A stretch of 64,000 bases of DNA, taken from contig CP147778.1 of the NCBI GenBank assembly GCA_037305845.1, positions 1,216,001-1,280,000 of the forward strand, read 5' to 3'. This DNA is from Candidatus Freyarchaeum deiterrae. GTDB taxonomy: Archaea > Asgardarchaeota > Jordiarchaeia > Jordiarchaeales > Jordiarchaeaceae. The translations under genes were made by a program, and so were the position numbers. Shown here in pieces: positions 16,488-19,970 of this stretch. Within the stretch, counting starts at the first letter, position 1. Each line of letters starts with the position of its first letter. The notes under the pieces were generated by a model, which saw only the letters and a list, made by a program, of their open reading frames with translations, ran no database searches and was not told the origin of the DNA.

Positions 16488-17171
16488 TTAAGGTTTGACA
16501 CTGCCCTGTTTGACTTGTAGCTTTTGGTCACGTATTCGCTGATAATGTGGTGTGATAAACAGAAAGTTAATTGAACCGGTAATACCAAAAAACATTAAGA
16601 GTGCTACCATCAGACCGGGGTCCTGGCGTATTATATAGAATCCTGAAAGCAACATGAGTAGTATTAGCACACAGTATATCGCGTCCAAGGTCATCATAGA
16701 GATGACTGTTCTTTTTCCCTCTTTTGTACTCCATATCAGAGATTTGAATCCTTTCACTGCTTCTCCCAGATTTTCGTAGCCGTTAACTCTGCTCAGAGGT
16801 GTAAAAAGCCTAATGGGTGTGAGCAGAAAACACACCGTGAGGGGCACCAGCAGAAGCAACTCCAACGTTAACATGAAGCCGGGATTCGTAGAAACTACTA
16901 ACCATCCTTCCCAAATCAGACCAAGAGTAGTGTAGTCTATTGAAAGCAACAAGCCAATAGTTAGAGGTCCTAGACTCAAGAGATGGGACCAGCCCGCGGG
17001 AAAAAGATAGAGCAAGCCTACGAGTAGTTTCACTCGGCTGAAAAAGAAAATATACATTAAGACAAAAAAACTGGTTACCGAAACTAGTAGAAGGACTATC
17101 AAAATTTTTTTAAATACACCACCCAGAGTTTTTGTTCTCATTTTTATCTCATCCAAACATTTATTTATCAT
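16488..17171 (-). CDS. Multi-pass membrane protein, paralog of 17847-18407 (candidate immunity protein B)
   Basis: Several TM segments; LLLVP and P.S...GYE..G...KRT motifs shared with 17847-18407. Confidence 0.7.
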   Translation of the reverse strand: MINKCLDEIKMRTKTLGGVFKKILIVLLLVSVTSFFVLMYIFFFSRVKLLVGLLYLFPAGWSHLLSLGPLTIGLLLSIDYTTLGLIWEGWLVVSTNPGFMLTLELLLLVPLTVCFLLTPIRLFTPLSRVNGYENLGEAVKGFKSLIWSTKEGKRTVISMMTLDAIYCVLILLMLLSGFYIIRQDPGLMVALLMFFGITGSINFLFITPHYQRIRDQKLQVKQGSVKP

Positions 17172-17295
17172 TTAACCCTCCAAAAAAGGGAGGGAAGACC
17201 TAAACGCTCCCAATGAGGATTAGGCCTATCTGGAAAAGCGTTTTAGTTTTAAAGGGCGAATACTCATATTTCAACGTTCTTGAGAGTTACGTGGG

Positions 17296-17667
17296 TTAAG
17301 GCGGCGGCGAATTTGTAGGGAAGGGCCCTACCCAAACCCAAGTATCGAAGCCAATAGTGTTACCCCAGACAGTAACGAGATTAGTGTACTCATTCCACAA
17401 TTGACTATAATTATCAACGTTTACGGAATAAGGCCAAGGTAATTTATAGTACCAGTTATCTACGCGAATATAGTAGGGAGTGACATACGGTTGCGTATCA
17501 TAGTACGATGGGTAGGCATTCATCGGAGGAGTGAGTGGGTCGTGGAAATACTCAACTTCCCTGAAACCGAAATTTGGATCACGGGCCCAATTATAGGCTT
17601 CGGTAATAACAAAACTGTCCCAAGCAGCGGCCATAAAAGTATTAGCGACAACATAAACAAGATTCCA
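17296..17667 (-). pseudogene. Orphan C-terminal fragment homologous to the C-terminus of 18606-19970
   Basis: AYNWARD, YFHDPLTPP, PYYIRVD, YTNLVT, GFDTWVWVG and SPPP align with the 454-aa protein; the frame is open 11 codons upstream of ATG 17634 to a TAA at 17668-17670. Confidence 0.7.
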
Positions 17668-17846
17668 TTAGATAACACCTTTTTGATAGTCATTCCAAAA
17701 GTTGTTGGGTATGAGTTCCCAGCGATGACGAGAATGTTAGTTTTTTATTGCTGTGAATGCCTTCATTGTAATAGGTTCCTTAGTGTAGAATCTGAAGCTT
17801 TAGGAACATCTCTAGCGCGCCAAGAGTATAATAACCCGTTTTCCGT

Positions 17847-18407
17847 CTATTGAATTGTTTTACGAATCTTTTGTAGTCGCATCCACGCAATAGTTAAACC
17901 CAATACACCGTCTATAAATAGTTCTAAAATAATTAGAGGGAAATTAAGTATTGTTTTGGAACTTGCAACAAAGGGAACCACCGCTACCGCGTAGAAGACT
18001 ATAATGATTAGAATCCCACTAATAATTAATGTTCTTTGCTTGCCTGTATTCTTAGTGATCATGAACCGAATTTTGTTCATCACATCACCGAATTTTTCAT
18101 AACCAGCGATTCCGCTAAAAGGTGAGATGAAAACATAGATGAGTCCTGTGACGAGAATTGCTAGCGTATAGGGAACTAGGAAAAGCAAATCTAAAATGAA
18201 CTTCGTGGTAAAATTCGTTACATATAAGGGTTGCTCAAAAAACACCACGCCGAGAAGATTAACCTTTATTATGGTTATGGGAAACACAAATACTGTGACA
18301 CTAAGCCCGTTAATCAGATACCACTGATAAACAAGAAAAGTAAGACTCACTGCCAAAAGTATGACAGTCAGTACTCCTATTATTTTAGCTAATACTTCCG
18401 TCTTCAT
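17847..18407 (-). CDS. Multi-pass membrane protein (candidate immunity protein A)
   Basis: 4-5 TM segments, GGAGG RBS, next gene downstream of the 454-aa protein; paralog of 16488-17171. Confidence 0.7.
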   Translation of the reverse strand: MKTEVLAKIIGVLTVILLAVSLTFLVYQWYLINGLSVTVFVFPITIIKVNLLGVVFFEQPLYVTNFTTKFILDLLFLVPYTLAILVTGLIYVFISPFSGIAGYEKFGDVMNKIRFMITKNTGKQRTLIISGILIIIVFYAVAVVPFVASSKTILNFPLIILELFIDGVLGLTIAWMRLQKIRKTIQ

Positions 18408-18605
18408 GGAATACCTCCAAAAAACTTTTGAAACAAATTAACATAAGAAAAATTTCGTTAATTCAAGTTATTAAATCACCTATCCATAATAGTTTTTTAC
18501 TATGAAAAAGGGGGAAATGAAAGGATTTAAGATTTCATTAATTGGTGCAATTCATTTTTAGGCTTTTGATGTACCTATGCAAAACTGCCATCAAGATACT
18601 TTGCA

Positions 18606-19970
18606 TTATGATGGGGGTGGTGAAGGTGCGGAACCCGTACCAAGCCATACCCAGTTACCGAAGCCATATAAACTACCAAAAGCGGTAACCAAATTTATGT
18701 AACTGTAATATATCGGCTCTCCAATTAGGAAATAGGCATCTCCAAGCGTCTTGGGCCAAAAAGCTCCGTCTACGCTGACGAGATAAGGCACTATTTTATT
18801 CCATTCATCATAGCAAGGTGGATTAGCTGTCTTTGGAGGGAGCATTGGGTTATGCCAATAGTCGCACTCCATCCAACCCCAGTCCCAGTCTCTAGCTTCA
18901 TTGTACGCCAGCACTTCCTTATACCTATCAAGTGTATACGCCTGTGCATAATGCCCAATAATACCCACTACAGCAAGTGCGAGCCCTACAGCACTAAGAA
19001 CAGTGGCTGCTGCTGATGTCACAGTACCAGCAACTGCCGCACCAACACCATATAAACCACCAGCGAAGCTAGCTATTGTACTTGCCCAGGTGAAAGCGTC
19101 CATGCTAGCGAGAGGTAGGTTTAGATATACATTTGCTAAATAAGCAGAAGCCTCCAATCCAGGTGTAAAAAATATGCACATGTACCAGTCGTATCCGTAG
19201 AGTACCACTGTAGGCCACCATCCAATGTAATAGGGCCACCAAAATACCCACACATAGCAAGGCCAGAGCAGTTGCGCCTGGTTGATGCGGAAGTAGGGGT
19301 CCATAATTACTGTTCCATCATCCGTAGTTACTGTTATTTTGGTTACGTTTTGTGTGGTTCCGTTTATTGTTAGTGAGTATTCTCTAGTCACAATGTAATA
19401 GGTTGTTCCATTAATGGTTTTAGTTTCGTTCAATTCGCTTGTTATTTTACCCTGCTGCACGATGTAGTTTACTTGTTGAAGTGATTGTATAGATTCATTC
19501 ACTATTTCGGGTGTTCGAAGCTCGTTTTCTCTGGAGAGCATTTGATCATACTGTGCGAAGCGTTCTGCGCAGTCCAGTCTTTCGGACAGGAACTGGAAGA
19601 ACAGCGCTCTGACTGATTCATTGTTTGGTGGTGATGTGAATGGTTTGAGTTCTCCGCTTTCTATTTTCTGCATCTGCCAATTCATGAAAGCATTGTTTAC
19701 AGCATCTTCAATGCTATGTTTCGCAACTTTGATTTGGTCCAGTGTTAATGCTTCTATGTCCAAGTTGGTAGAGAAATTCAGACTGTTGGAGATGTTTAGG
19801 TTTGAGCTTTTCGTTTGCTGTTCAAAATTTAGGGCATATAGTCCAAGAGGGGAGTAATTGTTATTCGCAAGTGCGCCGGCTCCAAACATCAGATAACCTG
19901 TTCCCAAGCTGATACTAAGCACTATGAAAACACTAGCCGCAAATATCCTTAACTTTGCTTTCATTCTCAT
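18606..19970 (-). CDS. Exported protein with Gly/Ala-rich hydrophobic hairpin and Trp/Tyr-rich C-terminal domain (candidate toxin precursor)
   Basis: Basic plus hydrophobic N-terminal signal/TM, Thr/Asn-rich middle, segment FAGGLYGVGAAVAGTVTSAAATVLSAVGLALAVVGIIG; function inferred. Confidence 0.65.
   Translation of the reverse strand: MRMKAKLRIFAASVFIVLSISLGTGYLMFGAGALANNNYSPLGLYALNFEQQTKSSNLNISNSLNFSTNLDIEALTLDQIKVAKHSIEDAVNNAFMNWQMQKIESGELKPFTSPPNNESVRALFFQFLSERLDCAERFAQYDQMLSRENELRTPEIVNESIQSLQQVNYIVQQGKITSELNETKTINGTTYYIVTREYSLTINGTTQNVTKITVTTDDGTVIMDPYFRINQAQLLWPCYVWVFWWPYYIGWWPTVVLYGYDWYMCIFFTPGLEASAYLANVYLNLPLASMDAFTWASTIASFAGGLYGVGAAVAGTVTSAAATVLSAVGLALAVVGIIGHYAQAYTLDRYKEVLAYNEARDWDWGWMECDYWHNPMLPPKTANPPCYDEWNKIVPYLVSVDGAFWPKTLGDAYFLIGEPIYYSYINLVTAFGSLYGFGNWVWLGTGSAPSPPPS

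Follow-up and report, generated by a model that had tools for sequence, protein, structure and literature searches.

A polymorphic pair of surface-protein and membrane-partner genes with an orphan module in a Jordarchaeia genome: a candidate strain-discrimination cassette

The cell-surface interactions that Asgard archaea, the closest prokaryotic relatives of eukaryotes, have with each other, with partners and with viruses are poorly understood. We analysed a window of 64,000 nucleotides from the Asgard archaeon Candidatus Freyarchaeum deiterrae (contig CP147778.1, positions 1,216,001 to 1,280,000 of the forward strand), which belongs to a closed genome of 3,576,204 bp, and focused on a locus at window positions 16488-19970 where four open reading frames (ORFs) of the minus strand follow one another: the gene of a 454-aa protein (hereafter the main protein), the gene of membrane protein A, a fragment of 112 codons and the gene of membrane protein B. 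A first-pass annotation had described these four genes in this order, which the ORFs verify, and had read them as a polymorphic toxin (archaeocin) and immunity cassette followed by an orphan module. The features of the locus, in transcription order, are the following:

18606-19970, minus strand: main gene (454 aa), for a predicted exported, hairpin-anchored surface protein (ORF, homologs, AlphaFold2 (AF2) model)
17847-18407, minus strand: membrane partner A, 186 aa, about 5 transmembrane (TM) helices, GGAGG before its ATG, putatively cognate to the type 1 C-half
17635-17846, minus strand: spacer without counterpart in the sister strain (translations and blastn breakpoints; right-hand breakpoint at about 17623-17665)
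17296-17634, minus strand: orphan C-domain of type 2, 112 codons, without N-domain, H region or signal peptide
16488-17171, minus strand: membrane partner B, 227 aa, 4-5 TM helices, intact, GGAGGG before its ATG, putatively cognate to the orphan

The fragment had been described as homologous to the end of the main protein only, and its match indeed covers residues 348-453 of that protein, with 38% identity (E 2e-18). The paralogy proposed for B and A is confirmed as well: a direct comparison by BLASTP gives a single 34-aa match (E 2e-4), and both proteins are recognised, at E 1e-44 to 1e-48, by a shared family hidden Markov model (HMM) made from 27 relatives. Each of them has 4-5 hydrophobic helices according to hydropathy. 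The description of the fragment as start-less has to be corrected, as an in-frame ATG exists at 17634, but it is not preceded by a Shine-Dalgarno-like motif.

The main protein is built of successive parts:

19866-19970, minus strand: N-terminal signal peptide or signal anchor, aa 1-35 (hydropathy; basic start, about 21 hydrophobic residues, then A-L-A)
19188-19865, minus strand: N-domain, aa 36-261 (invariant columns of alignment A1, AF2 secondary structure, N-domain HMM)
19188-19199, minus strand: YGYD motif, aa 258-261, boundary between the conserved and the variable part (alignments, DNA breakpoints)
18939-19187, minus strand: hypervariable H region, aa 262-344, a predicted TM helical hairpin
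18609-18938, minus strand: C-domain of type 1, aa 345-454 (alignment A4, AF2 model)

The hydrophobic stretch of the signal or anchor lies at residues 5-34, and the signal may be cleaved. The N-domain, which is the conserved part of the family, consists of helices and then a long beta-sheet whose last hairpin is Trp-rich, and it carries several N-x-S/T sequons and is probably glycosylated. At its end, Y258, G259 and D261 vary little or not at all in the alignments of 11 and of 31 sequences. The H region, about 90-105 residues long in the family, begins with an acidic amphipathic stretch followed by 45-55 uncharged residues with a central Gly/Pro turn, a plan kept in every family member despite the turnover of the sequence. 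The C-domain has about 100 residues in an alpha-beta-alpha arrangement, with conserved N, D-P, G, H, G and W, and ends in a Pro run. The AF2 model has a predicted local distance difference test (pLDDT) score of 72.5 and a predicted template modelling (pTM) score of 0.70 for the whole main protein, and the model of the C-domain has a pLDDT of 77.

The topology can be approached through longer paralogs. In the window's own genome, a giant protein of 1854 aa, continued past a frameshift by a piece of 463 aa (G000:C1:116216-123153; L005 2217-9153, minus strand), contains in its first ~440 residues a complete module of N-domain, hairpin and C-domain, followed by a proline linker and about 20 immunoglobulin (Ig)-like repeats rich in N-glycosylation sequons. 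A database protein of 915 aa has the same build, with the module at the N-terminus, then the proline linker and Ig-like repeats. These long forms surfaced by profile search; longer fused relatives were not found in a collection of 5.8 billion proteins, which is weak evidence. Since the Ig-like repeats of the long paralogs must be extracellular, the C-domain should lie outside the cell as well, and the most plausible reading of the uncharged stretch is a transmembrane helical hairpin flanked by two soluble domains that are both extracellular. The main protein would accordingly be exported by a Sec-type route, its two soluble parts facing outward and its hairpin embedded in the membrane.

Both families are restricted in range. 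The main protein has 11 close homologs, all from Jordarchaeia/Freyarchaeota, and a search of 1.84 billion representative proteins retrieved 44 clusters with the profile of the main family and 19 with that of the partners; the named matches of both are Jordarchaeia/Freyarchaeota, except one partner match labelled Lokiarchaeia. Pfam scans of the four window proteins, 31 main-family members and 22 partners gave nothing above noise, the ESM Atlas returned sub-threshold rows only for the main protein and partner B, and a description of either family was not found in a literature search. The two genes are also tightly linked: at the fetched loci with readable downstream sequence, each main gene is followed by 1-3 partner genes, the sole exception being G007:C14. 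Five other genomes of the genus contain 5-10 main-protein matches and 7-18 partner matches each, counts which are rough and not independent of one another, and the window genome has one full main gene, the fragment, the giant paralog and two partners. On contig G006:C519, 1 main gene is accompanied by 3 partners. Roughly half of the main copies are frameshift-split or 5'-truncated, and most partners are intact. This organisation recurs in a distant subfamily and in a sister family, down to a membrane partner that has the same loop motif.

Copies of the family at G007:C63:2584-3960, on G010:C121, on G008:C81 and elsewhere contain in-frame TAG or TGA codons. Stop-codon recoding has been reported for this lineage (PMC9723677), and some of the family's 'pseudogenes' might be read through in-frame stops.

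Five syntenic or partly syntenic versions of the locus were compared: the window, L050, G006:C273, G007:C14 and G008:C23. L050, the one locus yielded by a related-locus search with alignment A1, is a metagenome contig from a sister strain, with ~93% identity to the window in housekeeping proteins, and it carries a single full-length type 2 gene, then the ortholog of partner B, then a second, split copy of that partner. On G006:C273, a type 1 C-end followed by the ortholog of partner A (63% identity) is joined directly to the sequence found 3' of partner B in the window, without the orphan pair. G007:C14 has an intact 462-aa gene with a third kind of rear half, and the copy on G008:C23 is heavily pseudogenised. 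Set beside these versions, the window holds a type 1 cassette (H1, C1 and partner A) plus the rear of a type 2 cassette (C2 and partner B), and its flanks are syntenic housekeeping genes. Two type 2 proteins, P0010 (L050 8140-8300) and P0008, have an insertion of ~45 residues in the N-terminal region which, in alignment A1 and by an offset self-match in blastn, resembles an internal duplication of the segment that follows it.

The polymorphism of the main gene has a sharp border. The N-domain DNA of the window, L050 and G007:C14 is 69-77% similar, and this similarity ends at window nucleotides 19187-19189, just after the YGYD codons; beyond them, DNA similarity among the three syntenic alleles is nil and each has a different downstream gene set. 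Comparisons of protein pairs from other copies give the same picture at higher identity. P0004 and P0006 are 97-100% identical over ~255 aa and then only 21-45%, and P0007 and P0013 share >93% identity on either side of an H region where identity is 24-47%. In general, sliding identity in the H region drops to 21-47% between alleles that are >93% identical alongside, so hypervariability is centred on the predicted hairpin.

Synonymous divergence shows that pieces of the gene have separate histories. Between the window and L050, the baseline of synonymous substitutions per site (dS) is 0.32-0.44, and residues 131-261 of the N-domain reach a dS of 1.1-2.0. Between the window and G007, the N-domain has a dS of 0.72 (L033 9286-10066 against window 19188-19970), with flanking housekeeping genes from 1.4 to saturated and a saturated rear half. 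The N-domain value below that of the flanks indicates that this segment alone was recently exchanged between two species of the genus, and the dS contrasts together imply that segments of the main gene moved between lineages. The window arrangement may have arisen when an incoming cassette was inserted and displaced the previous rear half, or else through a deletion within an older tandem pair, and both routes use the conserved N-domain as homologous arm. A repeat search at the locus gave short repeats at chance level only, and flanking repeats or recombinase sites were not found by it. As for a provirus or mobile-element origin, we consider it unlikely, the housekeeping flanks being syntenic and a published analysis of the presumed matching genome reporting zero integrated elements.

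The orphan module behind the type 1 cassette can be traced to the sister strain. The orphan matches the C-domain HMM (E ~1e-26 to 1e-28) and is 64-67% identical to the C-domain of the full-length L050 gene, its ortholog, with a dS of 0.41, equal to the genome baseline, and a ratio of nonsynonymous to synonymous substitution (dN/dS) of 0.56. Partner B is 74-75% identical to the partner that follows the same full-length type 2 gene, with a dS of 0.44 and a dN/dS of 0.35, and it is intact though its main gene is gone. As the dS of the orphan and of partner B lies on the window-L050 baseline, both have come down by vertical descent. We reject the idea that the orphan arose by a simple recent duplication of the end of the neighbouring main gene, since it is of the other subtype and has its ortholog in L050. 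The frame of the orphan is open for only 12 codons upstream of its ATG, of which ~10 still resemble the relatives. It is also free of stops, a state that neutral drift at 0.2 substitutions/site preserves in ~4% of trials, and together with the dN/dS of 0.56 this means that the fragment was either recently orphaned or is under some constraint.

The same two observations could be explained if the fragment were a functional small gene. The beginning of the orphan is overlapped, in a different frame, by an ORF of 57 codons (17520-17693, minus strand) that begins with basic residues and has a hydrophobic stretch. Shifting the frame by one base at a TTTT run near 17640 would fuse the two into a product of ~132 aa with an A-A-A motif, that is, a stand-alone C-domain secreted either by a -1 shift at this run or because a sequencing error in the homopolymer hides the join. 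We regard this explanation as very improbable: a counterpart of the hydrophobic ORF was not found in the relatives, the spacer is unique to the window genome, neither ATG is preceded by a Shine-Dalgarno-like motif, and the comparable orphans on contig G008:C149 begin inside the hairpin or the Trp-rich strand, without a signal peptide.

That contig carries a second orphan array, consisting of a full gene, a partner, a truncated copy of 195 aa, a partner, a C-domain copy of 118 aa and a partner. The 195-aa copy begins 36 residues before the end of the N-domain and the 118-aa copy inside the hairpin; the latter shares 79% identity with the C-terminal end of a longer G007:C150 gene. Forms of ~220 aa whose start lies shortly before YGYD are met repeatedly in the database. 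The conserved N-terminus, the variable C-terminus and the variable downstream arrays that the first-pass annotation had predicted for relatives are thus all found, and the data support a polymorphic cassette layout. On the partner side, the family alignment has zero invariant columns. A family without an invariant residue suits a binding partner, not an enzyme, and a sortase-like or protease-like partner is for the same reason unlikely.

We propose that the locus is a Jordarchaeia-specific polymorphic two-gene cassette which discriminates strains, as a membrane-acting toxin with its immunity protein or as a non-lethal identity pair, a proposal for which we see the chances as evenly balanced. 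It is based on the tight pairing of the genes, the polymorphism bounded by a motif, the orphans with intact partners under purifying selection, the excess of partners, the lack of an invariant partner residue and the hypervariability centred on the hairpin. In this mechanism, the rear half of the main gene (hairpin and C-domain) and the partner gene would be replaced together by recombination between strains and species, with the conserved N-domain up to the invariant YGYD serving as homologous arm. The window strain would carry an active type 1 pair and, behind it, a displaced or truncated type 2 C-end with its intact partner B. The variable hairpin would enter a membrane, where the transmembrane helices of the cognate partner could recognise it and either neutralise or dock it, and the main/partner pair might then tell strains apart. 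A true secreted toxin takes the smaller share within this proposal. More specifically, the two novel families could form a strain-discrimination system of the Jordarchaeia's own, with a swappable membrane-inserting hairpin, a cognate neutraliser or recogniser, interspecies trade of cassettes and retention of the displaced ones as orphan modules for immunity or identity; this fuller version we put forward tentatively.

Several results weigh against strain discrimination. The C-domains, those of the distant subfamily included, all align as a single homologous family with the shared N, D-P, G, H, G and W, and are not assorted unrelated toxins. A toxin, nuclease, peptidase or pore-former family or fold was not found in the Pfam and fold searches, and the comparison of the whole-protein and C-domain models with the PDB by Foldseek and VIA-align gave no match (best E 0.04, Z 4.6 and 3.6). 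No delivery apparatus is evident, only a Sec-type N-terminal signal in a setting of housekeeping flanks, a systematic search for delivery systems not having been made. The identity of the C-domains correlates weakly with that of the adjacent partners (rho 0.34), and one pair has 81% identity in the C-domain but 30% in the partner. At G007:C14, only a 39-aa remnant of partner B remains downstream, so that an ortholog is intact without partner; the giant copy of the window genome likewise has no partner gene nearby. Finally, the whole module including the C-domain is the N-terminal base of the 1854-aa and 915-aa Ig-repeat proteins, and the pair is present in the sister family, apparently in single copy, which fits a cellular membrane complex.

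These points lead to a different explanation, namely that the pair forms an ordinary cellular surface complex in which the module is a membrane anchor or base and the membrane protein a structural or assembly subunit, fast evolution resulting from relaxed constraint or virus pressure and the truncated copies being decaying tandem duplicates. Besides the position of the module at the base of giant Ig-repeat proteins, it would account for the Pro run at the end of the short form, which is a linker in the long forms, for the conservation of the pair across two families of the order, for the deletion of the partner tolerated in G007, for the splitting or truncation of about half of the main copies and for the failure to find a toxin signature. 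It leaves unexplained that purifying selection preserves intact partners next to truncated main genes and that partners outnumber main genes, up to 1 main gene with 3 partners on G006:C519; nor does it sit well with a hairpin at ~25% identity between alleles otherwise >93% identical, or with synonymous-site data that require the import of foreign segments. We hold the surface complex to be less likely than a discrimination system, but a serious competitor to it.

The classical secreted toxin, which was the claim of the first-pass annotation, has fared less well. According to it, the locus makes an archaeocin whose C-terminal domain kills neighbouring cells to which it is released, with A and B as the immunity proteins. 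The layout, the pairs of orphan and partner, the partner excess and the polymorphism would all be expected of such a locus, and the invariant His and near-invariant Asn and Asp of the C-domain could form an active site. However, in the long paralogs the C-domain lies inside the protein and close to the membrane, variability is highest in the hydrophobic hairpin and not in the C-domain, the C-domain has neither fold nor family match, the predicted hairpin should keep the protein in the membrane of its producer, and an intact ortholog exists without a partner. We therefore consider an archaeocin improbable. Of the original idea of a cassette for antagonism or recognition, the data back the layout and C-termini that can be exchanged, each with a cognate membrane partner, whereas the toxin found no direct support: not one toxin family or fold was matched, the C-terminal domains form one homologous family and lie inside the giant Ig-repeat proteins, and in G007 the ortholog is intact with its partner deleted.

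The layout of the locus works like that of known polymorphic loci, but the locus belongs to none of their families. In contact-dependent inhibition (CDI), Rhs and MafB systems, the motifs between the conserved and the variable parts are VENN or PxxxxDPxGL. As in CdiA-CT/CdiI, Rhs-CT/RhsI and MafB/MafI, the main protein has a conserved N-part and a variable C-part split by a short motif, here YGYD, a small cognate gene lies directly downstream, exchange occurs between strains, and pairs of orphan C-end and partner are present, some with a stub of the conserved region as recombination arm. In contrast to these systems, there is no relation in sequence or fold, the variable parts here form one homologous family, and the protein probably stays in the membrane; a delivery context of the type V, VI or VII secretion (T5SS/T6SS/T7SS) type was not seen, only the Sec-type signal, in an analysis that made no systematic delivery search. 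Pore-forming colicins of the A, E1 and Ia type offer another comparison. Immunity to them comes from a small protein with 3-4 TM helices, which recognises its toxin inside the membrane, and the toxins are homologous, with specificity evolving within one fold. The long uncharged helical hairpin predicted here would likewise be a membrane-inserting element; unlike colicins, the main protein lacks receptor or translocation domains and has its hairpin flanked by two extracellular domains. Colicin chains were not among the fold matches of the main-protein model, nor was a ten-helix bundle recovered by the fold search.

A non-lethal outcome has a possible parallel in Proteus mirabilis, where IdsD, a polymorphic TM protein, is reportedly bound in an allele-specific way by the adjacently encoded polytopic membrane partner IdsE, the outcome being recognition and not killing. 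By analogy, the main protein would have TM segments next to its variable region and a membrane partner encoded by the adjacent gene; it differs from IdsD in that the latter is delivered by a type VI system, and there is no homology between them.

The nearest archaeal analogue is VARTIG of the Thermococcales, which is also restricted to one lineage and for which the same three hypotheses have been considered (Makarova et al. 2021, PMC8416519). In VARTIG, as here, the C-terminal region of a long first gene, which in VARTIG encodes the large Ig-domain protein of arCOG07710, is hypervariable through recombination between strains and species, the membrane proteins encoded downstream track the subfamily of the variable protein, and the layout resembles that of a polymorphic toxin with no identifiable toxin domain (PMC8416519). 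The present locus differs from the published description of VARTIG in its Asgard lineage and apparently unrelated proteins, and in the variable element, which is an Ig domain in VARTIG and a hydrophobic hairpin plus a small alpha/beta domain here, with Ig-like repeats only in the long paralogs; Pfam did not find an Ig domain in the 454-aa protein.

The locus offers a testable pair of unannotated families with a boundary motif, a variable element, a series of syntenic alleles and orphan modules. If antagonism or self-recognition is its role, it would rank among the earliest descriptions of a conflict or identity system in Asgard archaea, and would have arrived independently at the polymorphic-cassette logic seen in bacteria and in the VARTIG of Thermococcales; as a discrimination system, it would be an independently evolved archaeal analogue of contact-dependent inhibition or kin recognition. 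Should the pair be no more than a surface anchor complex, the locus nonetheless identifies the membrane base on which the lineage builds its giant Ig-repeat surface proteins.

At three loci of other genomes, ORFs that resemble toxin-antitoxin genes of the HEPN and nucleotidyltransferase kind, as judged by eye, adjoin modules of main and partner genes (L036 7622-8585, L049 4742-5705 and L037 2856-3281), which suggests that the main and partner modules of L036, L049 and L037 lie in variable islands of those genomes.

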